Positions 4,049-57,418 of a stretch of 64,000 nucleotides of DNA are shown here, in pieces; position 1 is the stretch's first letter; each line of letters begins with the position of its first letter. The stretch is from positions 21,637 through 85,636 of the forward strand of contig JBKPCC010000040.1 in assembly GCA_046727215.1 (NCBI GenBank), given 5' to 3'. The notes beneath the pieces are model-generated. The model was not told where the DNA came from. It made no database searches and saw only the letters and a list, made by a program, of their open reading frames with translations. The translations under genes and the position numbers were made by a program. The DNA is from Acidobacteriota bacterium. GTDB taxonomy: Bacteria > Acidobacteriota > Blastocatellia > Pyrinomonadales > Pyrinomonadaceae.

Positions 4049-4218
4049 CGTTTTTGATTTCTGATTTCTGATTTCGTTTTTTAGTGTCATTTCGTGATGT
4101 GATTTCGTGGATCGTTGATATACGCCAGAAACAGAATCCCCGAAATCAAACGAATAAAGGCGAACAAAGTCTTCGCAAATGACAAATCTCAAATGTCCAA
4201 TGTCCAATGTCAAATAAG
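4049..4218. repeat. Composite intergenic repeat between livG and livF (GATTTC words, family-2 word GTGATTTCGTGGAT, family-3 block)
   Basis: CGTTTTTGATTTCTGATTTCTGATTTCG (4049-4076) is partly complementary to CCAGAAACAGAATCCCCGAAATCAAACG (4125-4152). GTGATTTCGTGGAT lies at 4099-4112. CAAATGACAAATCTCAAATGTCCAATGTCCAATGTCAAAT lies at about 4178-4216. Confidence 0.6.
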
Positions 4219-4243
4219 GTAAATTGTAGTCGCCGCTAATATC

Positions 4244-4948
4244 ATGCTCACGCTAGAAAATGTTTCTGTTAATTACGGAGCAATAGAGGCTCTGACTGGA
4301 CTCTCAATGCACGTTGAAAAAGGCGAAGTCGTCACGCTCATTGGTGCGAATGGCGCGGGCAAGACAACGACACTGCGCACCATCACCGGTTTGCTTGAAC
4401 CACGTGATGGACGAATTAGTTTCGAGGGCAAGGACATCAGTGGCTGCGCAACCCATAAGCTCGTCTCTCGCGGCATCTCTATGTCGCCGGAAGGGCGCGG
4501 TGTTTTCTCGAACTTGTCAGTGCGCGAGAACCTGCAAATGGGAGCATATCTGATTAAAGACAGGCGCGCCGTCGCAGAGGATATGGACCGCGCTTTTCAG
4601 ATGTTTCCCCGTCTAAAGGAACGAGAGTCACAAAAAGCGGGGACATTATCAGGCGGTGAACAGCAGATGCTGGCGATCGGTCGCGCCCTCATGTCCCGAC
4701 CTCGTTTGCTGCTACTCGACGAACCCTCGCTCGGACTTGCGCCCTTAGTGGTCCATACAATCTTTGAAGCGATTGATGAAATTCGCAGCAAGGGAACAAC
4801 CATTCTTCTGGTCGAGCAGAACGCCCGTGCCGCTCTCGGTCACTCCGATCGTGCCTATGTACTCGAGACTGGACGCATTGTGATGGAGGGTCCTTCGAAA
4901 GAGCTCGCGGCCGATCCCAAGATCAAAGAAGCCTACCTCGGTGAGTAA
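4244..4948 (+). CDS. livF: Branched-chain amino-acid ABC transporter ATP-binding protein
   Basis: Walker A GANGAGKTT, signature LSGGEQQMLAIGRAL, Walker B LLLLDEPS, C-terminal KEAYLG. Confidence 0.9.
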   Translation: MLTLENVSVNYGAIEALTGLSMHVEKGEVVTLIGANGAGKTTTLRTITGLLEPRDGRISFEGKDISGCATHKLVSRGISMSPEGRGVFSNLSVRENLQMGAYLIKDRRAVAEDMDRAFQMFPRLKERESQKAGTLSGGEQQMLAIGRALMSRPRLLLLDEPSLGLAPLVVHTIFEAIDEIRSKGTTILLVEQNARAALGHSDRAYVLETGRIVMEGPSKELAADPKIKEAYLGE

Positions 4949-6182
4949 ACTCAACCAATTCTTCAATAAAACCGCAAAGGATCGTCGGCAAAGTGACAGC
5001 CGGTATTTCGAGAAGCACATAATTGCGATCGTCATTCTTGTTTTATGCTCTAGTGTGCTTTTCATTGCTGCTTGCAAACGACAGCAACAAACTACAGCCA
5101 GCCCTGATCGAAGTACAATTAGAATAGGTTATTACGGCGATCTTTCCGGTCAAACATTCAACTTCGGTGAGTCAGCAAAGAACGGCGTCCTCATGGCCGC
5201 GGCGGAAATCAACAGTCTCGGCGGCATAAGCGACCGGCAGATTGACGTGTCGATCGAAGACGACAAAGGCAGCCCTGAACGAGCAGCGACTCTCGCTAGT
5301 AAATTGATAAATCAGGACAAAGTGGTCGCGATTATCGCGGGAGGTGCATCAGGCAACAGTCTTGCAGCCGCACCGAGGGCACAAACGCTCAAAATCCCTT
5401 TCATTTCTCCTTCATCCACTGATCCGGCGGTCACGCGCACTGGTGACTACATCTTTCGTGTTTGTTTCATCGATGCTTTTCAGGGAGAGGTAATGGCGAG
5501 GTTTGCTGCCGAAACCTTGAAGGCTAAGAAGACCGCAATCATGGTTGATTTTAACAATCCGTACAGTCGCGGGTTGAGTGAGTTTTTTGAATTGAGCTTC
5601 ACAAAGCTCGGCGGGGAAATTGTCAGTAAGCAATCGTACGCGCAAGGCGACCCGGATTATAAAGGTCAACTGAGCACGATTCGGGCTACAAATCCCGACG
5701 TAATCTACATTCCCGGGTATTACGCTGATGTTGCCATTATGGCGAAACAGGCGCGTCAACTTGGATTGAACCAACCCTTACTGGGTGGCGACGGTTGGGA
5801 TGCACCTGAGTTGTGGCCGTTGGGTGGAGATGCATTAAACAACTCTTACATTACCAGTCATTATTCGCCCGGCGATCCCTCACCCGCGATTCAAAAATTT
5901 GTCCACGACTATAAACAGCGCTATGGCAATCTCGAGCCTGATGCTCACGCTGCTTTGGCCTATGACGCTATGAATGTAGTTGCGGATGCTATTCGCCGCG
6001 CCGGCACTACTGATTCGGCTAAATTGCGTGAGGCGCTTGCGCAGACAAAAGACTTCAGCGGTGTCACGGGCATGATTAGCATGAACAGGGATCGCGATGC
6101 AGTGAAACCGGCTGTGGTGCTAAAGCTCGAGGACGGACGGCGAATTTACCAGCAGACTATCCAACCTGAAGCGGCCAAATAA
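4941..6182 (+). CDS. Branched-chain amino-acid ABC transporter substrate-binding lipoprotein (second paralogue)
   Basis: Paralogue of the first CDS. The N-terminal hydrophobic segment ends in the lipobox-like FIAAC. The GTG start overlapping the livF stop is the only in-frame start before the signal peptide. Confidence 0.82.
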   Translation: MSKLNQFFNKTAKDRRQSDSRYFEKHIIAIVILVLCSSVLFIAACKRQQQTTASPDRSTIRIGYYGDLSGQTFNFGESAKNGVLMAAAEINSLGGISDRQIDVSIEDDKGSPERAATLASKLINQDKVVAIIAGGASGNSLAAAPRAQTLKIPFISPSSTDPAVTRTGDYIFRVCFIDAFQGEVMARFAAETLKAKKTAIMVDFNNPYSRGLSEFFELSFTKLGGEIVSKQSYAQGDPDYKGQLSTIRATNPDVIYIPGYYADVAIMAKQARQLGLNQPLLGGDGWDAPELWPLGGDALNNSYITSHYSPGDPSPAIQKFVHDYKQRYGNLEPDAHAALAYDAMNVVADAIRRAGTTDSAKLREALAQTKDFSGVTGMISMNRDRDAVKPAVVLKLEDGRRIYQQTIQPEAAK

Positions 6183-6184
6183 AT

Positions 6185-6272
6185 GAGAAATTAGAATTTA
6201 GAATTTCGTGTATTGTGGACTGAGTAATTTTCGAACCACAGAACTTCGTGTACACGAAATTCTAATTTCTGA
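6185..6272. repeat. Long imperfect hairpin between convergent genes (family-2-like words)
   Basis: GAGAAATTAGAATTTAGAATTTCGTGTATTGTGG pairs with CCACAGAACTTCGTGTACACGAAATTCTAATTTCTGA. Confidence 0.6.
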
Positions 6273-6320
6273 TTTTCCCACATTCAGTACGAGCAGACCG
6301 CGTGGCAGGTGAGTTTGCAA

Positions 6321-7127
6321 TCAGTTCGGTCGATCTTGAAAGTCGAAATCCAAGCTGCGCGATTCGTAAGGCGCAACAGTGACATCAGCAGTTCGCTCCC
6401 CAAACCGTTCATGCCATGCGACGACGGTATACGCACCAGGCGGTAGTCCGCTAATGCTATAGAATCCATTCTTGTCGGTTACCGCGAAGAAAGGGTGCGA
6501 TAGAACACCGACATAGGCTTTCATCCAGGGATGTTGGTTGCACTTAAAAGGAACCATAATCTCGGGCCGTGAAAACTGTTTGACAATGGCTTCGGCGCCG
6601 CTCGGTTGCGTCATGTTGAATTCTGCATTGTTCTTCGGGGTCGGATGAATATTGTGTTGAGTTGGATCGCTGTTGGTAATCATCAAAGTTTGGCCCGTTT
6701 GTATGCCCATAACATGCGGAACAAAACGACAGCGACGCTGATCAAGCACGGCAGGCGAAGAGGGTGCCTCAAAAACTAATTTCTCCAAGGCAACTCCTTT
6801 AACGTATACAAAAACATTGGCGACCATTCCGTTTATGATCGCTGCATGTTCCGTTGGGAGACGGCCCTTACCACTGCAGCTCGGATCTGCGGAAGTATCA
6901 ATCTGGAGTACACGCGGAGGATCACCGACAAACGTGATCCTTCCGCTCAATGTAGCCTCATTACCGACCGGCTTATAGGGAATCTTCGTTTGTTCTTGAG
7001 GCAATGAATTGGAATTCTGCAGTGCTGGCCGTGCACCACGAGATACGTTGCCTACCACGAGCCCAATAAGGATCAAAGCCACGGCTGAACAGGTTCGCGC
7101 TAACCGTCGATGCAGGACCTTTATCAT
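6321..7127 (-). CDS. Secreted cupredoxin (amicyanin-like type-1 copper site) fused to a carboxypeptidase-regulatory-like beta-sandwich domain
   Basis: Has an N-terminal signal/TM segment. Candidate T1Cu ligands are H in DPTQHNIHP plus C-x2-H-x2-M in FKCNQHPWM (compare amicyanin CTPHPFM). The C-terminal FYSISGLPPGAYTVVAWHERFG is typical of CarboxypepD_reg-like domains. Confidence 0.6.
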   Translation of the reverse strand: MIKVLHRRLARTCSAVALILIGLVVGNVSRGARPALQNSNSLPQEQTKIPYKPVGNEATLSGRITFVGDPPRVLQIDTSADPSCSGKGRLPTEHAAIINGMVANVFVYVKGVALEKLVFEAPSSPAVLDQRRCRFVPHVMGIQTGQTLMITNSDPTQHNIHPTPKNNAEFNMTQPSGAEAIVKQFSRPEIMVPFKCNQHPWMKAYVGVLSHPFFAVTDKNGFYSISGLPPGAYTVVAWHERFGERTADVTVAPYESRSLDFDFQDRPN

Positions 7128-8748: not shown

Positions 8749-9162
8749 ATGCAGAAGAATCTGCGACAGAAAAAGATCTTGAGCTTGATTCAGGGGCGGT
8801 CGATTGGCACGCAGGCTGAGTTACGCGGCTTGCTTGAACGATCCGGTGTTCCGGTCACGCAGTCGAGCGTGTCGAGGGACCTGGAAGAACTCGGAGTGGT
8901 GAAGCATCACGGCCGCTACACGGTTCCAAGATCGAACGGCAGTAACGCGCGCGGCTTGTTGAGTCTGGACATAGCGGGCGACAACCTGGTCGTCGCGCGG
9001 ACAGAAGCAGGATTGGCATCAGCGGTCGCGGTTGACATCGATGCGGCAGGGATTACAGAAATCGTAGGCACGCTCGCAGGCGAGGACACGATTTTTATCG
9101 CGGTCGGCGACCCAAAGGCACAAAGGGCGGTAATCAAAAAGGTCTTGGACGTATTTGGATAA
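8749..9162 (+). CDS. argR: Arginine repressor
   Basis: 137 aa with an N-terminal winged-helix (Q.EL...L...G..VTQSSVSRDL.ELG) and an ArgR C-terminal oligomerisation domain (GTLAGEDTIF). It lies divergent to argH and heads the arg operon. Confidence 0.88.
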   Translation: MQKNLRQKKILSLIQGRSIGTQAELRGLLERSGVPVTQSSVSRDLEELGVVKHHGRYTVPRSNGSNARGLLSLDIAGDNLVVARTEAGLASAVAVDIDAAGITEIVGTLAGEDTIFIAVGDPKAQRAVIKKVLDVFG

Positions 9163-9230
9163 TTCGGTATTTGGTTTTTGGTCTTTGGACTTAGGACGTA
9201 GGTCTTGTAACTGGCAACATTGACAATACG

Positions 9231-19149: not shown

Positions 19150-19201
19150 GAGTTAAGATAAGAAGGACATTAACGGGTGGACGTTTGAGAGTGGAGCTGG
19201 G

Positions 19202-19413
19202 GGATTGGAGATTGGAGATTGGATTTTGACATTGGACATTTGAGATTTTTCAATTTCCATTTCTCATTTTTCATTTATGTGTCTAATTTCAGAGGTGCCA
19301 AAGAACCAATAACAGGTGTCAAACAAGTAATGAAAATGGAAAATAGAATTTGAAAAATCTCAAATGTCCAATGTCAAATATCCAATATCTCCAATCTCCA
19401 ATATCCAATCTCC
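19202..19413. repeat. Very long family-3 hairpin (arms of about 75-85 nt) between convergent genes
   Basis: The left arm is GGATTGGAGATTGGAGATTGGATTTTGACATTGGACATTTGAGATTTTTCAATTTCC.... The right arm is its imperfect reverse complement, ending ...CCAATCTCCAATATCCAATCTCC. A 29 nt core (TTTGACATTGGACATTTGAGATTTTTCAA) is exactly complementary between arms. Confidence 0.8.
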
Positions 19414-19440
19414 ACGATCCGAATGCCAATCTTTATTTAG

Positions 19441-20232
19441 TTAGATATGGATCGTCCCCTCTAAGTATTTAGCCGCTCTCCCGGAAATCAAGACGCGGTT
19501 TCCTTTGTCCTCACAAAAAAGCTCACCGCCTCGCGCTGATATCTGCCGAGCGTGAATTTTGTTTTTCTTCAAGCGGTTGGCCCAGTAGGGGGTCAATGCG
19601 CTGTGAATGGATCCGGTCACTGGATCTTCCGGAATGCCATAACTCGGTGCGAAGTAACGTGAAGCGCAATCTGAGTGATCACCCGGCGCCGTGACGATCA
19701 CACCATACGGATGAAGCTCTTCCAGTTTCGTAAAATCGGGTCGCAGTGAAAGCACCTCCGCTTCCGATTCGTAAACGCAGAAGTAATTCGTCCCCGGTGT
19801 AACGAGGAAAACCTCGCGTGGCTGAGTTCGCAGTCCGTCCAGCAAGGCATCAGGCGCACGGTCGACACTTCTCAGACTCCATGCAGGAAAGTCCATCGTC
19901 AACATCTCGCCGTTTCGCCTAACGAACAACGGACCACTGCGGGATGAGAATTCCACCGATTCTCGTTCACGTTGTAACTCAGAAAAAATGACGTATGCAG
20001 ATGCCAATGTTGCGTGCCCACATAAATCGACTTCCAATCGCGGGGTAAACCAGCGCAGTTCAAATCCGCTGCTCGCAGGAACGAAGAAAGCTGTCTCTGC
20101 AAGATTGTTTTCCTCAGCGATCGCCTGAAGTACTCGGTCTGCAAGCCAGCTATTTAAAGGACAAACAGCAGCCGGGTTGCCGCGGAACACCTCGCTCGCA
20201 AACGCATCTATCTGAAACAGACGTAGCTCCAT
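19441..20232 (-). CDS. PhzF-family isomerase/epimerase-like protein
   Basis: 263 aa. N-terminal FQIDAF....F.GNPAAV, ETAF, DLCGHATLA and C-terminal GR are typical of the PhzF family. Confidence 0.8.
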   Translation of the reverse strand: MELRLFQIDAFASEVFRGNPAAVCPLNSWLADRVLQAIAEENNLAETAFFVPASSGFELRWFTPRLEVDLCGHATLASAYVIFSELQRERESVEFSSRSGPLFVRRNGEMLTMDFPAWSLRSVDRAPDALLDGLRTQPREVFLVTPGTNYFCVYESEAEVLSLRPDFTKLEELHPYGVIVTAPGDHSDCASRYFAPSYGIPEDPVTGSIHSALTPYWANRLKKNKIHARQISARGGELFCEDKGNRVLISGRAAKYLEGTIHI

Positions 20233-20373: not shown

Positions 20374-20958
20374 ATGAATAAACAAACGAAGTCTGAATCC
20401 ATTAGGTTTCAACCCGCTACGCCGGCGCGATGGAAAGACATTGAGAGACTTTTTGGCGACAACGGAGCGTGTGGCGGGTGCTGGTGCATGTTCTGGCGGG
20501 TGCCTCGCAAACGGTATGAATCGCAAAAAGGCGCAGGGAACAAGCGTGCCTTGAAGACCATCGTCAGCGCAGGAGAAAAGCCGGGCATTATTGCCTACGT
20601 TGGGAATGAGCCCATCGGCTGGTGCGCCGTGGGTCCACGCGAAACGTATGTAGGGCTAGAAACGTCGAGGCTTCTCAAGCCGGTAGATGACCGTCCCGTT
20701 TGGTCTGTCTCGTGTTTGTTTGTTCGAAGAGACTATAGACGCAGAGGCATCTCAGCAAAGCTTATTGCTGCTGCTGTCAATTTTGCCGTTCGCCATGGTG
20801 CGACGATTGTTGAAGGGTATCCGTCTGAGCCGTCGGGCGACAAAATGGCCGACGCATTTCTTTGGCACGGTATACCGTCGGCTTTTAAAGCAGCAGGTTT
20901 CCGAGAGGTGACACGACGATCGCCTACGCGGCCGATCATGAGATTCGAAGTTGAGTAA
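20374..20958 (+). CDS. GNAT-family N-acetyltransferase
   Basis: Acetyl-CoA-binding motif context VRRDYRRRGISAKLIAAAVNFA. Size is typical for a GNAT. Confidence 0.7.
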   Translation: MNKQTKSESIRFQPATPARWKDIERLFGDNGACGGCWCMFWRVPRKRYESQKGAGNKRALKTIVSAGEKPGIIAYVGNEPIGWCAVGPRETYVGLETSRLLKPVDDRPVWSVSCLFVRRDYRRRGISAKLIAAAVNFAVRHGATIVEGYPSEPSGDKMADAFLWHGIPSAFKAAGFREVTRRSPTRPIMRFEVE

Positions 20959-20977
20959 TTTGCACTGTAGAAGAGAA

Positions 20978-21167
20978 CGATTTGACATTGGACATTTGAG
21001 ATTTGTCATTTGCCATTTGCAATTCTAATCGATCGGGTTTTTTCGTGTGTGTTTGACTGGTGATTTCGTGGATGGGTTATCGGCGCATTGACGATCGATC
21101 CACTAAGCCACACGAAGCGGCAAACAAATGGCCAAATGACAAATGTCAAACATCCAATCTCAAATCG
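20978..21167. repeat. Nested inverted repeat: outer family-3 arms, inner family-2 arms
   Basis: Outer: CGATTTGACATTGGACATTTGAGATTTGTCATTTGCCATTTGC pairs with GCAAACAAATGGCCAAATGACAAATGTCAAACATCCAATCTCAAATCG. Inner: ...GTGATTTCGTGGATGG pairs with GATCCACTAAGCCACACGAAGCGG. The 24 nt at 20981-21004 is identical to 19225-19248. Confidence 0.8.
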
Positions 21168-21189
21168 TTGTTTTCTAGTGGGATGCCAC

Positions 21190-22908
21190 TCAAGCCACGG
21201 TAACTGGCTTGGTGTCAGCCTGGCGCTTCACAATTACCAGCGTAATGTCATCAGCTGCGCGCGTTCCCTGAGCGAATTTCGTTAGCGCGGACTCGATTCG
21301 ATCACGGATACCAGCTGCCGAAGCATCCACGTTACGCGACACGACTTCGTAGAGCCGGGTTGGACCAAACTCCTCGCCGGTTGGACTAAGAGCTTCCGTT
21401 ACCCCGTCGGAATAGATCACAAGTACGTCGCCGTTTTGTAGTTGTGTTCTTCCCTCTCGGTAATCCGCATCTGGCTTGATGCCCAACGGTAATCCACCTG
21501 ACGCCAGTTGCTCTACGGTTCCCGCAGCATGAACAATCAACGGCGGATTGTGACCTGCATTCAAAAACGAGAGTGCACCAGATTGGGGCTCCAGCTCCGC
21601 ATAAAAGAGAGTAACGAAACGATTCGGCGGAATATTTTCGGCTAGATACCGGTTGACCGCTGAAATAGTTGCGACAAGCGAATCATGTGAACCCGACTGC
21701 GCATGGATCGCGGCATGTAAAGACGACATTAACAGTGCGGCGGCAGTTCCCTTACCCGAAACGTCACCGAGAGCAATCACCAGCCGGCCGTCATCGCGTT
21801 TTATGAAATCGTAGTAGTCGCCGCCGATTTCGTAGCAGGGAAAACTAATACCTTGCAACTCATAACCTGGTAGTTGAGGTGGCGCCGTCGGCTGAAATCG
21901 CTGCTGAATCTCACTTGCCAGCGCGAGTTCGCGTTCCAATCTCTCTTGTTCGAGCCGCGATTCGACGAGCCTCGCATTCTCGACGCGAATCGCTGCCACC
22001 GACGCCAACGTTGTAAGTACTTTCAAATGGTCTTCAGTAAATCGGCCTTCCGCAATCGGCGAGTCAGCATAGATGATGCCGAACACGTTATCGGCAACAC
22101 CGAGTGGCACAGCCAGAACTGAACGAACGCCTTGCAACACAACGGTACCACTCGCAAAACGAGGATCATGCTGGGCGTCCGAAGTAAGAACAGACTTTCC
22201 GCGAAACACTACTTCTTCGAGTACATTACGACTGACGCGGATCTCGCCAACCTCGCCCGCACGGTCGCGCAACCGAGCGACAGCGACGCGCAATTCTTCG
22301 CTGCCTTCAGAACGCATCATTAACAAGCAACGATCCGCCGGTACAGCTTCAAATACCAACTGCACGATTTGCTCGAGCGTTTCGTTCAAGGTGGCCGACG
22401 CCAGCAACGTAATGCCCACCTTGCTGATGAGCGCAAGTAAGTCACCCGCTTTTGCCGTTGCTGCCTTTGCCGTGACATGTTCAGGTTTCGTGCGAGCACC
22501 CTCAATTGCTTCCAGCAGCCCGGAAGTCGTTCTATCACCCGAGGCGAGAGCAATCGTCGCTTCCGGCAATGAAGTCGTATTGTCAGTAATCATCGTGGCA
22601 CCCATGCTGGAATTGTAGGTGCCGTCGTCAAAGATGATTTCAGTCTCGCCAATCTGAATACGACCTCCTGGTCCAAGCGGTATTACGCCTTCAACAGTGG
22701 AACCGTTATAGAGGGTACCGTTAGCCGATCCCAGATCCTGCAGAAAGTACTCATCGCCCTCGCGACGAACTTCAGCGTGGACTCGAGAAGCAAATGGATC
22801 AGGAATACAGAGATCGTTTCTGGCAGATCGGCCGATGGTGATGCGCAGCCGACCCAGCGGAAAATGATCGGGGGCTCTGTCGGGGTATTTGACGATTAGC
22901 TCAGACAT
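21190..22908 (-). CDS. FHA domain - GAF domain - PP2C/SpoIIE-type protein phosphatase
   Basis: N-terminal FHA (ITIGRS..NDL.I.D...SR.HAEV...GDEYFLQDLGS.NGT). Central GAF-like region. C-terminal SpoIIE motifs (GGDYYDF, ALGDVSGKG..AAL.M, YSDGV.E). Confidence 0.85.
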   Translation of the reverse strand: MSELIVKYPDRAPDHFPLGRLRITIGRSARNDLCIPDPFASRVHAEVRREGDEYFLQDLGSANGTLYNGSTVEGVIPLGPGGRIQIGETEIIFDDGTYNSSMGATMITDNTTSLPEATIALASGDRTTSGLLEAIEGARTKPEHVTAKAATAKAGDLLALISKVGITLLASATLNETLEQIVQLVFEAVPADRCLLMMRSEGSEELRVAVARLRDRAGEVGEIRVSRNVLEEVVFRGKSVLTSDAQHDPRFASGTVVLQGVRSVLAVPLGVADNVFGIIYADSPIAEGRFTEDHLKVLTTLASVAAIRVENARLVESRLEQERLERELALASEIQQRFQPTAPPQLPGYELQGISFPCYEIGGDYYDFIKRDDGRLVIALGDVSGKGTAAALLMSSLHAAIHAQSGSHDSLVATISAVNRYLAENIPPNRFVTLFYAELEPQSGALSFLNAGHNPPLIVHAAGTVEQLASGGLPLGIKPDADYREGRTQLQNGDVLVIYSDGVTEALSPTGEEFGPTRLYEVVSRNVDASAAGIRDRIESALTKFAQGTRAADDITLVIVKRQADTKPVTVA

Positions 22909-31266: not shown

Positions 31267-31348
31267 ACGTATTGGAGATTGGACATTTGACAATCGCAAT
31301 ACGACTAGAAGCGTATTCGCAAATCTCAAATGGCAAATATCCATCTCC
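31267..31348. repeat. Family-3 hairpin between MacB permease paralogues 2 and 3
   Basis: ACGTATTGGAGATTGGACATTTGACAATCGCAATACG pairs with CGTATTCGCAAATCTCAAATGGCAAATATCCATCTCC. Confidence 0.6.
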
Positions 31349-33965: not shown

Positions 33966-33970
33966 AATAG

Positions 33971-34110
33971 TCCACAGGTTACACTGACTAAAAATAAAGC
34001 AGACACGCAGAAGGCGGCACTCCTGTGGCCTTTTTGCTTCTGGTTCCTACCCGTGCCGCCTGCTTTCTGCCTTTAGTTTTAATCAGTGTAATCTGTGTGT
34101 AATCTGTGGA
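33971..34110. repeat. Family-1 long hairpin between convergent genes
   Basis: TCCACAGGTTACACTGACTAAAAATAAAGCAGACACGCAGAAGGCGGCAC pairs with GTGCCGCCTGCTTTCTGCCTTTAGTTTTAATCAGTGTAATCTGTGTGTAATCTGTGGA. Confidence 0.75.
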
Positions 34111-34126
34111 TCGCGGTTAAGTGTTC

Positions 34127-35237: not shown

Positions 35238-35389
35238 GATTACCCAGATTCGATCCACAGATTACACAGATTAATGCATAATAGCGACGTAATCCTCACA
35301 CCGGTCTTTTGATCAACTTCGGTTCACGAGCTTGGAACAACGTCGCTTTGTGCTTTGATAATCTGTGTAATCTGTGGAGTAGTGGATTT
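35238..35389. repeat. Family-1 inverted repeat; the right arm lies inside the 3' end of oppF
   Basis: The 19 nt CCACAGATTACACAGATTA (35255-35273) is exactly complementary to TAATCTGTGTAATCTGTGG (35359-35377). The inner 8 bp stem is AGCGACGT / ACGTCGCT. The oppF stop is at 35324-35326. Confidence 0.8.
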
Positions 35390-38443: not shown

Positions 38444-38451
38444 CGGTCACG

Positions 38452-38579
38452 CCGCAAAAAGGCACAACAGTCAAAAAGATTAACTACGGAATGAAGCGAA
38501 ATCTGCCCCAATCACGACGTTCTAATATTCGCTGAGCGGCCTATTTACACTCTCGTGCCTATTGTGCCTTTTTGCGGCC
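38452..38579. repeat. MITE-like element: 19 nt terminal inverted repeats flanking about 90 nt
   Basis: GCCGCAAAAAGGCACAACA (38452-38470) pairs with TATTGTGCCTTTTTGCGGC (38561-38579), 18 of 19 complementary. Confidence 0.65.
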
Positions 38580-38585
38580 TCTAAG

Positions 38586-40193: not shown

Positions 40194-40261
40194 GACGTGC
40201 GTGTTGCAACGCCCCGAGTGCGGCGATATTCGAAGCCTAACATAGCGTTTGTGAGCGTCGC

Positions 40262-40382
40262 AATTGAGGAAAACTTAGCCGCAGATTAATGCCGATTACG
40301 CAGATCAAGAGCGGAGGTTTTGAAACCGCGTCGCCTGCTAAGGTTTCCTCAATTTTGATCTGCGTCATCCGCGTTAATCTGC
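40262..40382. repeat. Two long interleaved (non-nested) inverted repeats in the divergent mutase/rlmI intergenic region
   Basis: A 40262-40279 AATTGAGGAAAACTTAGC pairs with A' 40337-40354 (17 of 18). B 40281-40308 GCAGATTAATGCCGATTACGCAGATCAA pairs with B' 40355-40382 (25 of 28). The order along the strand is A-B-A'-B'. Confidence 0.75.
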
Positions 40383-40448
40383 AATCATAATAGCTTGCCT
40401 TGGTGGAGATTTCCGATTATTAGGGCAAGCGTGTCAGAGTATAAGTGG

Positions 40449-41612
40449 ATGCCTGAAGCAATAGTAACAAAGCGTGGCGCAGACCGTGTTCGCAACGGAC
40501 ATCTTTGGATTTATCGAAGCGATGTGGTCGACGCATCGGACGTTGCGGGAGGCTCAGTCACAGCCGTGTTGGATCAACACAGGAACTTTGTGGGCCAGGC
40601 GTTTTATAGTGACCGCTCCGAAATCGCGCTGCGGCTGCTGACCAGATCCGACGAAGACATTAACCGCGATTGGTGGTCCGGACGCATCCATCAGGCAGCG
40701 CAACGCCGGCGAGTAATTGCAAAGAACACAAACGCCTATCGCCTCTTCTACTCCGAAGGAGATCTGATTTCCTCTCTGATCATCGATCGATATGACGATG
40801 TGCTTGTTCTACAGACTCTTTCTCAAGGAACTGAGGCGGTAAAGTCGACTTTTGTCGACTTACTCGTCGAACAGTTTAGTCCACGAGCAATTTTTGAAAG
40901 GAATGATGTGCGAGTGCGAGCACTTGAAGGCCTGCCCCTCGTGACGGGCGCGCTCTACGGCGACCCGGTTGACCAGGTTGAGGCGACACAACACGGTTTG
41001 AAACTTATCGTGGCGCCTATGGGAGGGCAGAAGACCGGTTCTTTTCTCGATCAGCGGGAAAACCGGCTTGCAGCGCAGTCGTACGCTCACGGCCGCGCGC
41101 TTGATTGCTTCACTTTCGCAGGTGGTTTTGCTCTTCACTTGTCTCGTGTGTGTGAGCGCGTGCTTGCGATCGATATATCTCCGGAAGCAGTTGCGTGGGC
41201 TCGTCGCAATGCCGAGTTGAATAACATCGCGAATGTCGAATTTCGTGAAGCAAATGTCTTCGACGCGTTGCGCGAATTTGAAGAGGCCGGCGAGAGATTC
41301 GACACCATCGTGCTCGATCCGCCGGCGTTTGCAAAAAATCGCGGCAGCATCAAGCCTGCATTGCGCGGGTACAAGGAGATAAACCTACGCGCACTTAAGC
41401 TCCTCAATCCCGGAGGCATTTTGGTGACGTGCACGTGTTCATATCACGTGTCGGAACAAATGTTTCTCGAAATTATTACCGAAGCGGCGAAAGATGCGCA
41501 TCGAAGGCTGCAGCTTGTGGAGAAGAGAACACAGGCAAGCGATCATCCAATACTCATCGGAGTCCCAGAGACGTATTACTTGAAGTGTGTCATTGCGAGA
41601 GTGATTGAATAA
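40449..41612 (+). CDS. rlmI: Class I SAM-dependent rRNA (cytosine-C5) methyltransferase, RlmI-like (PUA + MTase)
   Basis: N-terminal G.LWIYRSDV (PUA-like). QKTG.FLDQREN, LD.F...GGFALH, VLDPPAFAK and the CSYH motif are typical of the RlmI/RlmK family. The start was set at ATG 40449. Confidence 0.8.
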   Translation: MPEAIVTKRGADRVRNGHLWIYRSDVVDASDVAGGSVTAVLDQHRNFVGQAFYSDRSEIALRLLTRSDEDINRDWWSGRIHQAAQRRRVIAKNTNAYRLFYSEGDLISSLIIDRYDDVLVLQTLSQGTEAVKSTFVDLLVEQFSPRAIFERNDVRVRALEGLPLVTGALYGDPVDQVEATQHGLKLIVAPMGGQKTGSFLDQRENRLAAQSYAHGRALDCFTFAGGFALHLSRVCERVLAIDISPEAVAWARRNAELNNIANVEFREANVFDALREFEEAGERFDTIVLDPPAFAKNRGSIKPALRGYKEINLRALKLLNPGGILVTCTCSYHVSEQMFLEIITEAAKDAHRRLQLVEKRTQASDHPILIGVPETYYLKCVIARVIE

Positions 41613-42111
41613 GGGAGAAAGGGACATAGGGAGAGGGAGAGAGGGAGAGAGAGAGGGAGATGGGAGAGGAAGAGACGGACAATTTGACATTGGAGATTGG
41701 ACATTTCTCATTTGTCATTTAAGAGATTTGTTCGTGTTCGCTTCGTGTGAATTTGTGCACCATTTGTCCTGCTCGCGACAAAGAACCATCACGAAATCAC
41801 GATCCACCAAATCACGTTCCACGAAATCACGTTCCACGAAATCACGTTCCACGAAATCACGATCTGCAAATCACGATCCGGAAATCACGTTTCACGAAAT
41901 CACGATCTGCAAATCACGATCCGGAAAATCACGTTCCACGAATCACTTTTCCATCAAATCTCGTTTCCATGAAATCACGATCTGCAAATCATGATCTGCA
42001 AATCATGCGAACGAACACGAAGAATTGTTCTTAAATGACAAACGACGAATGTCCAATCTCCAATGTCAAATTGGTTTTTTATTTACCGTTTCCCTCTTCT
42101 CTCCTTCCCTC
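41613..42111. repeat. About 500 nt composite nested palindrome filling the convergent rlmI/BNR intergenic region
   Basis: Outer G/A-rich arm 41613-41676 pairs with C/T-rich arm 42088-42111. Family-3 arms 41681-41723 pair with 42030-42072 (25 nt exact). Family-2 arms 41725-41749 pair with 42004-42027. A central tandem array lies between them. Confidence 0.85.
41788..42008 (+). repeat. Tandem array of about 15-16 units of a 14-16 nt motif (ATCACG[A/T]TC[C/T]NC[G/A]AA)
   Basis: Unit starts read off at 41788, 41796, 41811, 41826, 41841, 41856, 41870, 41884, 41899, 41913, 41928, 41942, 41958, 41974, 41988 and 42002. Units are contiguous, with no spacers. Confidence 0.85.
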
Positions 42112-42118
42112 GCAGCTA

Positions 42119-50518: not shown

Positions 50519-50530
50519 TTCAGTTCAATA

Positions 50531-50675
50531 GGGAAAAAGGGAAAACGGGGAAAAGGGTAACAAGGGTAAAAGGATAATGGTGTCTCAATGTCCCCGCGTC
50601 TCCCCTTTTCCGCGTCCCCGCGTCCCCGCGTCCCCGCGTCTCCCATTCTCCGTGTCCCCCGCGTCTCCGCGTCCC
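50531..50675. repeat. G/A-rich block plus (CGCGTCCC[C])n tandem repeat in the atpD-atpC spacer
   Basis: The plus strand has GGGAAAAAGGGAAAACGGGGAAAAGGGTAACAAGGGTAAAAGG (50531-50574) and TCCCCGCGTCTCCCCTTTTCCGCGTCCCCGCGTCCCCGCGTCCCCGCGTCTCCC... (50591-50675). On the atp mRNA-sense strand the latter reads GGGGACGC repeats. Confidence 0.8.
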
Positions 50676-52394
<1,719 letters not shown>

Positions 52395-52398
52395 TTAG

Positions 52399-54128: not shown

Positions 54129-54246
54129 GTGTGTTTACCTTGTAAGGGGTCCTAATCTGCGGATGTTATGGCGCGCGCTGCTATGCTACTTGAGTGCTAC
54201 TGGACGGTCAACCCGGTCGTCCCTGCAAAATCACAACTTTCGTTTC

Positions 54247-54290
54247 GTGTGATTTCGTGGACAGTTTTGTGTGATTTCGTGGATAGTTTT
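54247..54290 (+). repeat. Two tandem 22 nt direct repeats containing the family-2 word, upstream of the peroxiredoxin gene
   Basis: GTGTGATTTCGTGGACAGTTTT (54247-54268) and GTGTGATTTCGTGGATAGTTTT (54269-54290) differ at one position. Confidence 0.75.
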
Positions 54291-54379
54291 GGAGAACTAG
54301 TGTTGCGTTAACTTGAAATCGCTTTTTGTGTAAATTATCTTTACCTAGCATCAAACAAAAACAAAAGGAGGAATTTTTC

Positions 54380-54844
54380 ATGCCTGAAGTGGGGGATCTG
54401 GCCCCGGATTTTGAGCTGCCAAGTAACATGGAGAAAGGAAAAAAAGTGAAGCTTTCCGATTTCCGTGGCAAGAAAAACGTTGTACTCGCTTTTTATCCTT
54501 TAGCGTTCACGCCGGTTTGAACGGCGCAAATGCCTGCGTACGAGGCCGACCTCGAACGCTTCAAAGGCTATGATGCCCAGGTCTTGGGCATATCCGTCGA
54601 TAGCGTCCCCTGCAACACCGCCTGGGCAAAAAGCCTCGGTGGACTTTCATACGATCTGCTTAGCGATTTTCACCCCAAGGGAGAAGTGGCCAAGAAGTAC
54701 GGTGCCTATCGTTCAAATGATGGGATAAGCGAGCGCGCTCTCTTCATCGTGGACAAGGAGGGGAAACTCGCGTACAAGGATATTCACGACATTTCGGATC
54801 AGCCGGATAACGAAGATTTATTTGAAGTTCTACGGAAACTGTAG
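54380..54844 (+). CDS. AhpE-like 1-Cys peroxiredoxin with predicted selenocysteine (UGA at 54518-54520) at the peroxidatic position
   Basis: ORF-track pieces 54326..54520 and 54530..54844 are in the same frame. The joined product (154 aa) reads ...[27 protein letters not shown].... This aligns to the FFPLAFTGIC(Cp)QGE motif of AhpE/AhpC-TSA proteins. AAGGAGG RBS at 54365-54371. A SECIS-like hairpin lies at 54536-54559. Confidence 0.8.
54536..54559 (+). promoter_or_regulatory. SECIS-like hairpin downstream of the peroxiredoxin UGA
   Basis: GCGU-A-CGAGG [CCGA] CCUCG-A-ACGC: 4 bp + 5 bp stem with an A/A internal loop, starting 16 nt after the UGA at 54518-54520. Confidence 0.55.
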
Positions 54845-54861: not shown

Positions 54862-54896
54862 AGGTCAGAGCTGGTCCGCCTGATTAGCTCTGACCT
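54862..54896 (+). terminator. Hairpin between the two selenoprotein genes (possible intrinsic terminator or attenuator)
   Basis: Perfect 11 bp stem AGGTCAGAGCT / AGCTCTGACCT with a 13 nt loop, followed by the T-rich TCACTTCTGTTT. Confidence 0.4.
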
Positions 54897-54908
54897 TCAC
54901 TTCTGTTT

Positions 54909-55637
54909 ATGACTATTTTTCGCAAGTGTGTACCTTTCACGCCGTTTGAAGGTGAGCTGTCAAAGGCGACTATCGCAATCGTCTCTGCAGGCGGAGTCCA
55001 TCTGAAACATCAGGAGGCGTTCAATACGAGCGACGAATTGGGCGATCTCGGCTACCGCGTCATACCAGAGGATGTCGATTCAAAACATATAATGGTAACG
55101 CACCACCATTACGACCATTCCGATGCCGACCGGGATATCAATGTGGTTTTTCCGATCGATGTCTTACGGGATCTGGAGAATGAGGGATTCATCGGCGGCA
55201 TTGCCCGCAAACATGTCGGTTACATGGGCTACACTATGCAGCTGAAGGCGATGTATGAGGGAACTGCCCGTGAGATCGCCAATGAAATCGACAAAGGATC
55301 CCGAGCAGATGCCGTGGTGCTGACTGGTGGTTGACCGAGCGTTTGTCACCGCACGGTCGTGGCGGTCCAACGCGAGATCGAAATGAAAGGAATTCCGACA
55401 GTTCTCATTACTGTCAGCCCGGAAGTCTCCGCGCAAATGCGGCCTCCACGAGCGATTTATCCAAATGGCTTTAAAATTGGGAACAGTTTGGGAAAGCCAA
55501 ATGCCCGTGACTTGCAGCGAAAAGTTCTAAGAGATGCGCTCAGCCTGTTGAGGGAAAACACTCGGCCGGGCGCAATCGTGACAAGGGAATATCCGGAATA
55601 CGGAGACTACTTCGAGCCGCCACGGGTTAGGAAGTAA
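54909..55637 (+). CDS. GrdB/PrdB-family (glycine/sarcosine/betaine/D-proline reductase selenoprotein B-like) protein with predicted selenocysteine (UGA at 55332-55334)
   Basis: ORF-track pieces 54909..55334 and 55359..55637 share one frame with no other stop. The joined product reads ...ADAVVLTGG-U-PSVCHRTVVAVQREIEMKGIPTVLIT.... This is the U(C)-x3-C redox motif context, followed by the E..GIPTV motif of the GRDB family. Upstream HHHYDHSDADRDINVVFPID.LR.LE.EG.IG is also family-typical. A SECIS-like hairpin lies at 55348-55366. Confidence 0.75.
55348..55366 (+). promoter_or_regulatory. SECIS-like hairpin downstream of the GrdB-like UGA
   Basis: ACCGC-(A)-C [GGUCGU] G-GCGGU: stem with one bulged A and an apical loop containing GGU, starting 14 nt after the UGA at 55332-55334. 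Confidence 0.5.
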
Positions 55638-55643
55638 ATTCCG

Positions 55644-56756
55644 ATGAAAACCATAGGAATCGTAACAGGCGGAGGCGATGCTCCTGGTTTAAATGCTGTA
55701 ATCCGCGCGGTTGTCAAAACGGCTGTTTGTGAGTACGGCATGCGGGTGATTGGTATTGAAGACGGGTATGAAGGTCTTCTGGGTGACACGAGAACCAGGC
55801 CCTTAACTCCCGACGATGTGCGGGGTCTTCTTCCGCGCGGCGGTACGATCCTGGGAACAAGGAATCGTGGCAGATTTGCAGAGCATGTGGAGGGCGGCGT
55901 TCTCACCAAGTCGGAGGATGTGTATAAGGAAGCTGTTGGAAACCTGCAACGCCTTGGCATTGACGGACTCGTAGTCCTCGGAGGAGAAGGCACCCTTACC
56001 ATCGCAGCAGAATTTGATGCATTGGGTATCCCCGTATGCGGAGTACCAAAAACAATTGATAATGATCTAGCCTGCACAGAACTGACTTTCGGTTTCATGA
56101 CGGCACTCGATATTGCGACTGAAGCTTTGGACCGGCTTCATACCACTGCTGAATCTCACGATCGCGTTATGATTCTCGAAGTAATGGGACGCAATGCAGG
56201 ATGGATTGCTCTGCATTCCGGGATCGCTGGCGGGGCCGATGTTATCTTGATCCCGGAGATCCCCTTCTCCATCAAGTCTGTTGCGGCGAAGATTCGAGCA
56301 AGAGAAACTGGTGGATCAAATTTCAGCATTATTGTGATAGCTGAAGGCGCAGTTGAAGTTGGTCACGAGCAGATCTATCAGGATAAAGGCGATCCGTTGC
56401 ACGCCCCCAGATTAGGTGGCATTGGAAACTATTGTCGAATAGAGTTGGAACAACTTACTGATAAAGAGGTACGTTGTGTTGTTCTCGGGCACTTGCAAAG
56501 AGGTGGACGACCCAACGCATTCGATCGGATGCTGGCGACGAATTTTGGCTCCTGCGCCGTCCGCACACTGGCGGAAGGAAAAACAGGAGTCATGGTCGCG
56601 CTGCAAGCCGGAGACATTGTTCCCGTGCCGATTTCTGAAGCCATTGCGAATACGAAGACCATTCCGCCTACAGGTCAATTGGTCCGCACCGCGCGAGACA
56701 CTGGCATCTCGTTTGGCGCACCAGATGAGGCAGAACATCATCAGCAAGGGCTCTAA
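55644..56756 (+). CDS. pfkA: 6-phosphofructokinase
   Basis: IGIVTGGGDAPGLNAVIR, GG.GT, PKTIDNDL, MGR.AGWIAL and LGH.QRGG motifs. ATP versus PPi specificity was not assigned. Confidence 0.9.
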   Translation: MKTIGIVTGGGDAPGLNAVIRAVVKTAVCEYGMRVIGIEDGYEGLLGDTRTRPLTPDDVRGLLPRGGTILGTRNRGRFAEHVEGGVLTKSEDVYKEAVGNLQRLGIDGLVVLGGEGTLTIAAEFDALGIPVCGVPKTIDNDLACTELTFGFMTALDIATEALDRLHTTAESHDRVMILEVMGRNAGWIALHSGIAGGADVILIPEIPFSIKSVAAKIRARETGGSNFSIIVIAEGAVEVGHEQIYQDKGDPLHAPRLGGIGNYCRIELEQLTDKEVRCVVLGHLQRGGRPNAFDRMLATNFGSCAVRTLAEGKTGVMVALQAGDIVPVPISEAIANTKTIPPTGQLVRTARDTGISFGAPDEAEHHQQGL

Positions 56757-56778
56757 AGTTGGAGGAAGCGAGACGTAA

Positions 56779-57255
56779 GTGTCACAAGACATCAAACAAA
56801 AACTGCAGGGCGAGCTTGATGAGCTCGAGAACGAGTTACGCGTTCACCTTCCCAAAGAGATAAAGAGAGCGCTTGAGTTTGGGGATCTGCGTGAGAACTC
56901 GGAGTACCGTGCGGCGTTGGACCGCCAGAACGTGGTGAAGGCACGTATTGTGGAACTGCGACAGCGGATCAGTGAGATTGCTTCGATTGACCTCAACCGC
57001 ATTCCGAAGGACCGGGCCGGTTATGGATCTGTGCTGAGTCTTTATGACGCGGAACGGGATGAGGAGGTAACTTATCGGCTTGTCACACCGGAAGAAAGCG
57101 ATCCACAAAAAGGGCTGATCTCTACTACGTCTCCAGTCGGAAAGAGTCTGATGGGTAAGGAGGAAGGCGACCAAGTAGTCGTGCGTACTCCTGCCGGTGC
57201 ACGTACGTTTGATATTAAGAGTTTGACCACGCTTCACGACGAGCAGGCGAAGTAA
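56779..57255 (+). CDS. greA: Transcription elongation factor GreA
   Basis: 158 aa. N-terminal coiled coil with GDL.ENSEY.AA...Q and C-terminal S..SP.G..L.GK..GD.V motifs. GTG start. Confidence 0.88.
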   Translation: MSQDIKQKLQGELDELENELRVHLPKEIKRALEFGDLRENSEYRAALDRQNVVKARIVELRQRISEIASIDLNRIPKDRAGYGSVLSLYDAERDEEVTYRLVTPEESDPQKGLISTTSPVGKSLMGKEEGDQVVVRTPAGARTFDIKSLTTLHDEQAK

Positions 57256-57261
57256 AGACTT

Positions 57262-57418
57262 ATCCACAGATTACACAGATTTAGAAGGTAAAACAGTAGG
57301 CTTGACTTAGCCGACATCAAGAAAGCTGACTTGCTAAAACAGGAACCTCAGCCAAGGGCGATAATTCAAGTTTGCTGCTTTGGACTCTAAATCTGTGTAA
57401 TCTGCGTAATCTGTGGAT
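57262..57418. repeat. Family-1 inverted repeats flanking about 100 nt (MITE-like) between greA and the CDP-alcohol phosphatidyltransferase gene
   Basis: ATCCACAGATTACACAGATTTAG (57262-57284) pairs with CTAAATCTGTGTAATCTGCGTAATCTGTGGAT (57387-57418). The 20 nt ATCCACAGATTACACAGATT is identical to the copies at 15404 and 35253. Confidence 0.8.

Follow-up and report, generated by a model that had tools for sequence, protein, structure and literature searches.

The 64,000-nt window analysed here (the whole stretch of DNA, positions 21,637 to 85,636 of contig JBKPCC010000040.1 in assembly GCA_046727215.1, from an Acidobacteriota bacterium of the family Pyrinomonadaceae) is an ordinary chromosomal stretch. 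Pfam scans, which covered 20 of its about 60 open reading frames (ORFs), identify ABC transporter ATPases, pyrB, argB, an arginine repressor (Arg_repressor match for ORF 8749-9162) and the ATP synthase epsilon subunit. PhzF homologs, too, place it in or near this family, with 76% identity to the best named relative; its exact pyrB product has no record, and none of the fetched loci is nearly identical to it in DNA. Intergenic DNA makes up 9.3% of the window, and its larger gaps carry arrays of short tandem words, mostly arranged as inverted repeats that fold into hairpins. No tRNA was found in the window, Rfam 15 gave no match at the gathering score over its whole length, and words of the L116 type (GACAGGATT) are absent from it. 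A cyanobacterial origin was rejected, with the HIP1 sequence (GCGATCGC) present 4 times vs 3.6 expected and thus not enriched. We describe these word-array hairpins, which are real, polar and present across phyla, and examine their link to genes of the GxxExxY nuclease family.

Short intergenic repeats such as repetitive extragenic palindromic (REP) sequences, short tandemly repeated repetitive (STRR) sequences and heptamer arrays have been catalogued for decades. To our knowledge, REP and REP-associated tyrosine transposase (RAYT) are the sole pair that links such repeats to a candidate enzyme.

The three word families that a sequence-only reading of the window had reported lie where it placed them, at counts far above the shuffle expectation. 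Family 1 (ATCCACAGATTACACAGATT) occurs exactly at 15404, 35253 and 57262, with 10 matches at up to three mismatches vs 0.01 expected. Family 2 (GTGATTTCGTGGAT) occurs exactly at 4099, 21060 and 54271, with one more exact copy at minus-strand position 15494; its matches at up to two mismatches number 12 vs 0.72 expected. The 24-mer of family 3 occurs exactly at 19225 and 20981 and, on the minus strand, at 19355 (6 matches vs 0 expected). The reported variants at 17233, 33971, 40281, 6205, 15455, 41788-42008, 4178, 17190, 31275, 41681 and 42030 are seen in the sequence, as are the block of GGGAGAG at 41612-41679 and, at 2037-2068, the GGCAATCG words, and families 1 and 2 do end in a common (G)ATCCAC. 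Each arm is internally repetitive, again as described. Specifically, Tandem Repeats Finder (TRF) resolves the arms into short tandem arrays, mostly of period 7 (18 rows) and also of 8, 9, 10 and 15. Family 3 arms are heptamers, and the heptamer units of the window are TTGGACA, TTTGACA, GGAGATT and TTTTCCA. A single arm is a direct array of words, such as (CACAGATTA)n, that ends in ATCCAC or CCAC and is not itself a palindrome. A CRISPR array was rejected for 41790-42008, which has a 15-nt period without spacers, vs repeats of 24-48 nt with unique spacers.

Table 1. Word-array elements of the window, with their arms, setting and structural support.
Position	Words and arms	Setting	Pairing, fold and tandem repeats
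1955-2068	Hairpin; right arm is a GGCAATCG/CAATCGG heptamer array (2037-2068)	Co-directional gap	Minimum-free-energy fold pairs 1955-1978 with 2037-2068; TRF period 7; gap z −3.2
4051-4215	Composite word arrays: TTTCTGA x3.6 (4051-4075), family 2 (4085-4112), short hairpin 4099-4149, unpaired family-3 array 4176-4215		No global fold (z 0.05)
6181-6275	Hairpin; AAATTAG/AGAATTT heptamers and TTTCGTGTA words	Convergent genes	Inverted repeats of 25 nt and 19 nt, 92-95% complementary; RNA fold z −6.6 (6181-6278)
9151-9188 (+)	Unpaired GTATTTG heptamer array	Overlaps arginine-repressor stop codon	TRF
15404-15545	Nested; outer family-1 arms ATCCAC(AGATTACAC)n ... GGGTGGAT; inner family-2 hairpin 15440-15468/15493-15523	pyrB/argB gap	RNA fold z −6.2 (15400-15549)
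17178-17216 (+)	Unpaired TTTTCCA/TTTTTCA heptamer array, family-3 type	Divergent gap	TRF periods 7 and 14
17233-17379	Family-1 hairpin (TTCCACAGATTACAG ... GTCATTTGTGGAT)	Same divergent gap as 17178-17216	17360-17379 has 2 mismatches to family 1
19187-19420	Largest clean hairpin; GGAGATT, TTGACAT/TTGGACA and TTTTTCA heptamers	Convergent asparaginase and PhzF genes	Inverted repeats of 46 nt (91%) and 31 nt; DNA fold −65.7 kcal/mol, z −11.5
20968-21177	Nested hairpin; family-3 arms outside, family-2 pair GTGATTTCGTGGAT...GATCCAC inside	Convergent GNAT and FHA-GAF-SpoIIE genes	45 nt, 87% complementary; gap z −6.5 and −9.3
31271-31345	Small family-3 hairpin (ATTGGAGATTGGACATTTGAC ... CAAATCTCAAATGGCAAAT)		TRF at 31271-31292 and 31317-31338
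33971-34111	Family-1 variant hairpin (TCCACAGGTTACACTGAC ... GTGTAATCTGTGGAT)	Convergent genes	RNA fold z −5.8 (33968-34114)
35253-35379	Family-1 hairpin; perfect 20-nt arms, 85-nt loop		100% complementary; RNA fold z −8.3 (35250-35382)
38451-38578	Hairpin (GCCGCAAAAAGGCACAACAG ... CTATTGTGCCTTTTTGCGGC)		23 nt, 91% complementary; z −4.6 (38448-38581)
40281-40382	CGCAGAT-word hairpin (GCAGATTAATGCCGATTACGCAGATCAA / TTGATCTGCGTCATCCGCGTTAATCTGC); fits double-word grammar	Divergent gap	28 nt, 89% complementary; z −8.0 (40278-40385)
41612-42112	Triple-nested 500-nt element; outermost GGGAGAG / CCCTCTTCTC arms; next family-3 arms 41680-41724 / 42029-42073; innermost 15-nt-period family-2 array 41790-42008, about 13 copies		Inverted repeat of 45 nt, 93% complementary; z about −10 (41613-42118)
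50530-50676	AGGGAAAA array (50530-50577), then GTCCCCGC array (50590-50676)	Upstream of ATP-synthase epsilon gene	Partly complementary; TRF; gap z −0.8 and −1.4
54242-54291 (+)	Two direct 22-nt family-2 units (GTTTTGTGTGATTTCGTGGACA) without complementary partner	About 90 nt upstream of peroxiredoxin ORF	TRF period 22, 2.3 copies; z +0.97
57262-57418	Family-1 hairpin (ATCCACAGATTACACAGATTTAGA ... TCTAAATCTGTGTAATCTGCGTAATCTGTGGAT)	Starts 6 nt after stop codon	Gap z −5.0 and −5.4

The arms form long inverted repeats, as had been proposed, with arm lengths of 20-46 nt and complementarity of 87-100%. Very stable folding is found at 11 sites (z about −4.5 to −11.5 against dinucleotide shuffles, the reference for all z-scores given here; 19187-19420 was folded as DNA) and is lacking at 4049-4198 and 54225-54330. 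Similarly, the copies form complementary pairs at most sites, whereas the family-2 copies at 54225-54330 are direct and the arrays at 9151-9188 and 17178-17216 are unpaired. Stems are long and A+T-rich (gap GC content 0.35-0.47), mostly without T-runs, and loops are unrelated between window copies. The nesting order varies, with family 1 outside family 2 at 15404 and a family 2-type word outside family 1 in Asticcacaulis. The adjoining minus-strand ORF runs with its 3' end through the right arm of the 35253 hairpin.

The larger intergenic gaps are indeed occupied: word arrays lie in 17 of the 26 gaps of at least 60 nt, and all five convergent gaps of this size contain a strong hairpin. Most elements begin near a stop codon, as the sequence-only reading had it (15404 starts 1 nt after one, 4051 starts 2 nt after, 57262 6 nt after, and 6181 overlaps one), but the divergent, promoter-side gaps 17040-17381 and 40194-40394 are also occupied. 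The element in the gap 4049-4243 separates two ABC_tran ATPase genes (LivG/LivF-like), probably of one operon, and its position resembles that of operon-internal REP elements rather than that of a terminator.

This placement bears on the main rival explanation, which we regard as somewhat unlikely. According to it, the hairpins are built by the host and selected as two-way terminators or stabilisers of RNA 3' ends; they arise in place by slippage of 7-10-nt units and intrastrand template switching, like the cyanobacterial STRR sequences, and the GxxExxY gene described below is an unrelated selfish passenger that prefers to insert into hairpin loops, a harmless site. The strong hairpins in every convergent gap, the starts within a few nucleotides of stop codons and the unrelated loops all speak for it. 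So does a consensus scan of the window, in which canonical terminator-like sites are not enriched (20 vs 21.1 expected and 13 vs 20.6 expected) and none lies at the elements or the gene ends that they occupy. STRR hairpins have been reported as possibly raising transcript stability (PMC2670836). Host construction fits less well with the elements in divergent promoter gaps, with the one inside a likely operon, with the unpaired arrays and with the absence of U-tracts after the stems. Intrinsic terminators as such were rejected, on the grounds that sites are neither in excess nor present at the elements and that the stems are long, A+T-rich and mostly free of T-runs.

Orthologous gaps were compared in syntenic contigs from metagenome-assembled genomes (MAGs) of Pyrinomonadaceae, whose PhzF proteins are 75-83% identical to that of the window. 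The comparison reveals presence and absence of elements and rapid turnover. The asparaginase|PhzF gap of the window spans 291 nt and is filled by a 234-nt hairpin built of GGAGATT/TTGACAT words. In one relative (L120), TTTTCCA/TTTCTCA arms enclose an inner TTCGTGGAT...ATCCAC hairpin, while in a second (L123) the inner hairpin stands alone, with a right arm recognisably homologous to that of the first. In a third relative (L126) the gap is 3 nt, and elsewhere its contig uses a different vocabulary, AATCCGC/GCGGATT. The orthologous gaps of relatives hold other word arrays or none; therefore position is often conserved, content turns over and the element is dispensable. For host construction, this cuts both ways, as orthologous gaps that keep a hairpin while changing its words are expected of it and a 3-nt gap in place of the 291-nt gap of the window is not. 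In the second relative (GCA_035644135.1, 10515-11050), the pyrB-argB spacer is 521 nt long and contains a direct duplication of about 125 nt, with copies ending AATCTGCGTAATCTGCGTAATCTGCGGAT, around central family-1 and family-2 hairpins.

The family-1 word extends far beyond this bacterial family. When 185,579 species-representative genomes were searched for the 20-mer without mismatch, it turned up in at least 119 genome stretches from at least 16 phylum-level groups. Among the matches listed, record titles assign 63 to Acidobacteriota (41 Pyrinomonadaceae and 22 others) and 56 to at least 15 other phylum-level groups. Carriers outside Acidobacteriota include Chloroflexota, Planctomycetota, Pseudomonadota, Verrucomicrobiota, Bacteroidota, 'Deltaproteobacteria' and Lentisphaerota, and further Spirochaetota, Armatimonadota, Nitrospirota, Binatota, Gemmatimonadota, Cyanobacteria and candidate phyla. 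Also among the carriers are three Asticcacaulis species not labelled MAG, of which one is represented by a complete chromosome, along with a closed chromosome of 4.3 Mb and contigs of several megabases; bin contamination is therefore insufficient to account for the whole spread. Family-2-like and family-3-like words accompany the 20-mer in Saprospiraceae, Asticcacaulis and Verrucomicrobiota. The strings of the repeat words were not found in the literature searched.

The 20-mer is polar. A CTGYGGAT partner lies within 400 nt downstream in 84 of 140 occurrences and upstream in 6, which places ATCCAC at the stem base. Minimal hairpins of 49 nt, with conserved stems and variable 9-nt loops, account for many of the copies. 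Identical 20-28-mers of fixed polarity in at least 16 phylum-level groups are left unexplained by construction in place by each host.

The conserved terminus invites a reading as duplex-DNA protein-binding arrays, either DnaA-box-like TTATCCACA clusters or other nucleoid or regulator sites, which we consider scarcely probable. ATCCACA supplies seven of the nine DnaA-box bases, several copies in other phyla read TTATCCACA, and the words repeat every 9-10 nt, which is near a full turn of the helix. On the other side, the TT that completes the DnaA box is present in only 36 of the 140 occurrences, for which DnaA-box arrays were rejected, and the remaining word (GATTACACAGATT) is equally conserved. 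The complementarity of the arms, with compensatory changes, points to pairing rather than to duplex recognition alone.

Two carriers arrange the word differently. In a Gemmatimonadales MAG (L032, 5761-6588), four successive 20-mers are spaced 266-276 nt apart, suggesting tandem units of that length and a different higher-order arrangement of the same word. In a Cyanophyceae MAG (L039, about 1342-1601), the word recurs in tandem units of about 42 nt (GGTCCACAGATTGCACAGATTACACAGATTGTCTGAAGGAGG), as direct and not inverted repeats. Mobile replicons were searched as well. BLAST of a family-1 hairpin against plasmids and phages gave no match at E ≤ 0.01, a result that is uninformative for the 20-nt core, and family 3 is absent from the viral contigs searched. 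A 29.7-kb contig classed as viral (IMGVR_UViG_3300037264_001851; L131/L132) contains five exact 20-mers, with family-1 hairpins between several of its genes; it could be a phage that uses host hairpins or a misclassified host fragment.

The sequence-only reading had likened the elements to REP sequences, bacterial interspersed mosaic elements or miniature inverted-repeat transposable elements (MITEs). The likeness holds for the architecture, which is dispersed, extragenic, hairpin-forming and nested. It does not extend to the named families, since we found neither a target-site duplication nor a conserved interior, and neither the GTAG terminus nor a RAYT gene. No target-site duplication abuts any of 11 window elements, and none was found at 19 short copies from many genomes. 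The sole hint in the window is a 7-mer, CGATGAG, on both sides of the pyrB-argB element, at 15397-15403 (holding the pyrB stop) and 15551-15557 (holding the argB start). It could be an ATGA stop/start overlap duplicated when the element arrived, and it is no clean target-site duplication because it is non-adjacent to the right arm.

Classical MITEs, that is internally deleted copies of DDE-type insertion sequences moved in trans by a transposase encoded elsewhere, are for these reasons very unlikely. Terminal inverted repeats, small size (50-500 nt), intergenic position and nesting are what such elements would display, and no target-site duplication or conserved interior accompanies them here. 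The interiors are unrelated, sizes vary widely, and each arm is a tandem array in which the number of words varies. The Pfam scans of 20 window ORFs detect no transposase, in line with the earlier claim, and about 0.8 Mb of loci around the 20-mer contain no recurring transposase gene. What recurs there, according to ORF clustering, are generic neighbours (response regulators, Ser/Thr kinase-TPR proteins and short-chain dehydrogenases).

The ORF clustering of 20-mer loci also brought out a conspicuous small family, PDDEXK_3, corresponding to NCBIfam TIGR04256 'GxxExxY protein'. The protein has about 115-135 amino acids and is of the PD-(D/E)XK type, with conserved D...ExK residues. In a Pyrinomonadaceae locus (L017), a frameshifted copy lies between ATCCACAGATTACGCAGATT and AATCTGTGTAATCTGTGGAT, and in a Prevotellaceae locus (L007) an intact copy lies between GCGCGAAGACACAAAGACGCAAAG arms. 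A single query retrieves 5,977 homologs at E ≤ 1e-5, in a family annotated only as 'unknown'. No relative in the Protein Data Bank was found by sequence, and an AlphaFold2 model was mediocre (predicted local distance difference test score 65.5). No link of GxxExxY, PDDEXK_3, PF13366 or TIGR04256 to repeats was found in the full-text literature searched.

Inverted word arrays that share the grammar of those in the window preferentially enclose GxxExxY genes, a result in which we have high confidence. We fetched 61 metagenome loci encoding GxxExxY relatives, of which 47 were testable, and aligned the upstream flank of each gene to the reverse complement of its downstream flank, calling enclosure at a score of at least 16 (shuffles, 8.6 +/- 1). 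Inverted flanks enclose the gene in 27 of the 47 loci, compared with 7 in the direct-orientation control. Enclosure is seen for 3.7% of 709 ORFs from hairpin-rich loci, for 2.7% of small ORFs and for 1 of 58 window genes; other ORFs that seemed to be 'enclosed' were set aside as ordinary genes between two complete hairpins. Long-range inverted repeats, sought in a broad scan, gave too much noise.

The arms around GxxExxY are tandem words of one type, such as GCCGCAGATGAACGCAGAT, GCCACAGAT... and ACCACGGAAGAACACGGAG, with further words AGCCGCAGATGAACGCAGATGAACGCAGAT, GCCACAGATATGCACAGAT, ACCACGGAAGAACACGGAGGAACACGGAG, AACCACAAAGAACACAAAG and TAACCGCGAATAACGCGAAT, and their outer boundary is CC[AG]C...G[CT]GG. 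In about half of the loci scored, no more than 20 nt separate the end of the left arm from the point where the protein match starts, and the right arm often overlaps the stop codon. A double-word grammar built from GxxExxY arms alone (two C[AG]CN[AG]A[AT] words, 1-4 nt apart) has 22 matches in the window vs 2.0 +/- 1.4 in shuffles, and 18-19 of these fall in the intergenic DNA. Families 1 and 2 and the elements 38451 and 40281 fit the class, with words of period 8-10 and a CCAC...GTGG outer boundary at the stem base. In addition, the words and GCCGC...GCGGC termini of the 38451 hairpin match the GxxExxY arm type of loci L179 and L185, and a GGGATTAGGGGGATT-type hairpin adjoins the GxxExxY gene at locus L171. 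The window copies are gene-less, with no GxxExxY ORF between their arms.

Isolated mismatches in the stems around GxxExxY bear on whether the arms pair as RNA or as DNA. A strict count gives 21 G.U on the sense strand vs 10 A.C, a lean that also favours host-built RNA hairpins, and a permissive count is unbiased at 70 vs 67, which tells against them. As a sign of pairing at the RNA level, the asymmetry is no more than suggestive.

The relatives of the L017 protein all lie at one locus of Pyrinomonadaceae, between the gene for a PolyA_pol/CCA-adding enzyme (cca) and that for an acyl-CoA dehydrogenase (acd). All seven cca|GxxExxY|acd loci have the left arm ATCCACAGATTAC[AG]CAGATT(ACACAGA) and its complement as the right arm, and one of the cca|acd loci (L201) contains the exact 20-mer of the window. 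The family-1 arm of the window is thus the arm of a GxxExxY gene in the same bacterial family. The last codons of the gene and its TAA stop are inside the right arm (...AAATCTGTGTAATCTGTGGAT). The proteins are 61-87% identical to one another and the arms keep their sequence; therefore the arms appear to be sequence-constrained or may be homogenised against dispersed copies. This conservation, while the protein falls to 61% identity, is not accounted for by host construction of the hairpins. Like a RAYT gene, the cca|acd GxxExxY gene is a long-term vertical resident.

Isolate genomes extend the association. In Gemmatirosa kalamazoonensis KBS708, a GxxExxY gene is bracketed by hairpins of CTTCAGTCC words, and the same hairpin has 40 or more places on the replicon of 1.1 Mb and 25 on that of 1.04 Mb, or at least 65 on the two megaplasmids, and is found in none of the other organisms in PLSDB. 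In this isolate, the hairpin that flanks the gene is an abundant, genome-specific repeat. On plasmid 1 (L202), hairpins of CTTCAGTCC/GGACTGAAG 9-mers lie at 13729-13821, 19775-19880 and 20392-20484, one copy being 6 kb from the gene, and tblastn reports three GxxExxY places on this plasmid. In Sphingomonas parapaucimobilis YK209 (L203, NZ_CP155749.1, 19971-20399), GxxExxY separates fabD from fabG in the operon for essential fatty-acid synthesis; the gaps measure 33 and 2 nt, and the arms are CACGCGAAGGCGCGAGGACGCGA / TCGCGTCTTCGCGGCTTCGCGTGAA. The Bernardetia gene has AACACAGAGATAAGGAGAACCACAGAGA arms. The association is frequent (about 60%) and not universal.

The nearest precedent is the REPIN-RAYT system, in which REP doublets form hairpins and are associated with a tyrosine transposase (Bertels & Rainey 2011, PMC3116915). 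Like REPINs, the elements are dispersed extragenic inverted doublets that form hairpins, clusters and nests, with several families per genome. A resident, vertically inherited gene flanked by a genome-abundant repeat, another feature of that system, is seen in Gemmatirosa and would follow by analogy for Pyrinomonadaceae. Unlike in REPIN-RAYT, the protein is a PD-(D/E)XK protein of about 120 amino acids (GxxExxY) and not an HUH Y1 transposase, the arm is a tandem array of 7-10-nt words and not a single imperfect palindrome, and the terminus is CCAC/GTGG and not GTAG. Identical words in at least 16 phylum-level groups further set the elements apart from lineage-specific REPs.

That the elements are themselves REP sequences or REPINs served by RAYT, an IS200-like HUH tyrosine transposase, is most improbable. 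The population structure is that of REPINs (inverted hairpin doublets that cluster and nest, and a flanked gene passed on vertically; PMC3116915), but the gene between the arms encodes no Y1 transposase, the termini are ATCCAC/CCAC, and single arms are not palindromic. No RAYT-like family appeared among the neighbours, in a search that was not exhaustive, and none in the window scans. With no GTAG terminus and no RAYT gene seen, the elements are not REP/RAYT as defined.

We lean towards the view that the window repeats are gene-less REPIN-like hairpins of a cross-phylum class, with the cognate GxxExxY gene elsewhere in the genome. More tentatively, GxxExxY (PDDEXK_3) may be the cognate partner of the cross-phylum word-array hairpins; if so, a partnership of the REPIN type would have evolved independently a second time, with a minimal PD-(D/E)XK nuclease in the place of the HUH transposase. 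The literature searched suggests that a partner-enzyme repeat system of this kind has not been described.

A mechanism driven by the nuclease is conceivable, and we put it forward with equal reserve. A resident, vertically inherited GxxExxY nuclease would recognise or cut cognate arms ending in CCAC...GTGG, and this would drive the copying of arm pairs to new sites. Copies would settle just past stop codons and in the loops of existing hairpins, hence nesting in any order. The words would expand and contract by slippage, with the complementarity of both arms kept. The hairpins would probably double as two-way transcript-end or RNA-stabilising structures, because the elements lie at gene ends in a region without canonical terminators. 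Gene and arms may also move between lineages as a unit, and no other explanation has been offered here for the identity of 20-mers between distant phyla. The phylogeny of PDDEXK_3 reportedly includes multiple transfers between bacterial divisions and mixed clades (PMC3424549); such transfers would explain identical words in distant phyla.

Several observations weigh against a GxxExxY partnership. No GxxExxY gene or remnant was detected in the window by profile in any frame (best E for the window loops, 1.3), and the link therefore rests on related genomes. The window loops share nothing with the interiors of gene-bearing elements, so that the gene-less hairpins are not simple deletion derivatives. 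No recent transposition of anything was observed, and the cca|acd gene is a stable vertical resident. Orthology at shared loci accounts for most of the match between arm word and protein clade. About 40% of GxxExxY genes have no clear arms; in isolates, the Treponema gene has a weak arm match and the Persicobacter gene has no arms. In Prevotella nigrescens (L207), direct ACAAATCG/ACAAATAG arrays at 1380-1450 and 1930-2000 precede GxxExxY and the next ORF, and this is not an inverted enclosure. Family 3 heptamers and G/A-rich blocks are tied to no gene. A Foldseek search with the AlphaFold2 model returned nothing at E ≤ 1e-3 and weak restriction-endonuclease-like matches only. Finally, a 115-aa nuclease cannot alone explain the chemistry of insertion.

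Other known repeats share parts of this picture. The STRR units CCCCAGT, TTGGTCA and CAACAGT reportedly were described in heterocystous cyanobacteria by Mazel et al. 1990. The defined STRR sequences differ from the present ones in host and unit, the host here belonging to Pyrinomonadaceae and the units being TTGGACA, TTTGACA, GGAGATT and TTTTCCA. GGGNATC heptamers occur in Xanthomonas and Nostoc (PMC4692102), and TAACTGA heptamers occur in Beggiatoaceae, Cyanobacteria and Bacteroidetes, a cross-phylum spread for which 'no mechanism evident' was the verdict (PMC4679880). Like these repeats, ours are intergenic tandem 7-nt units, often in inverted hairpin pairs, strain-variable and of puzzling cross-phylum distribution; family 3 of the window (TTGGACA/TTTGACA/GGAGATT) and the GGGATTAGGGGGATT-type hairpin at L171 come closest to STRR. 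Those repeats, however, are in other phyla with other units and no gene has been proposed for them, whereas families 1 and 2 are mainly arrays of period 8-10 with a defined CCAC terminus. MITEs and elements of the Correia/NEMIS type are likewise small, non-coding, intergenic, bounded by inverted repeats and able to affect neighbouring transcripts, but they have the target-site duplication, conserved interior and fixed length that the present elements lack, and no cognate DDE transposase was found for the latter.

In the intervening sequences (IVSs) of 23S rRNA, flanking inverted sequences form an extended stem, the loop holds an optional small ORF, and the distribution across phyla is sporadic. 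The word-array elements resemble IVSs in the stem, the optional loop ORF, the sporadic distribution and the host-tolerated placement, for example in the fabD-GxxExxY-fabG operon of Sphingomonas. They differ in lying outside rRNA and in the ORF family.

Two further features of the window concern its gene calls. The PrxQ/BCP-type peroxiredoxin ORF 54380-54844 has an in-frame TGA (54518-54520) at the position expected of the peroxidatic cysteine and probably encodes a selenocysteine-containing protein, to judge by that codon; because of it, the ORF finder gives the peroxiredoxin only from 54530. Just 3' of it, ORF 54909-55334 has a match to selenoprotein B of glycine/sarcosine/betaine reductase (family GRDB, C-terminal part, E 4e-14), so that two selenoprotein-related genes are adjacent. 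The 129-aa 'ORF' 41605-41994 is the product of stop-free family-2 and GGGAGAG arrays alone. Such stop-free word arrays will create false gene calls, and word arrays may also hamper assembly.

The hairpins mark gene ends in Acidobacteriota, Planctomycetota, Chloroflexota and other groups where canonical terminators are scarce. If the partnership with GxxExxY is true, it would give a very large orphan protein family its first functional context, as a structure-specific mini-nuclease with a defined nucleic-acid partner. It would also provide a mechanism for the cross-phylum spread of simple intergenic repeats, possibly including those of the STRR type and other enigmatic heptamers.

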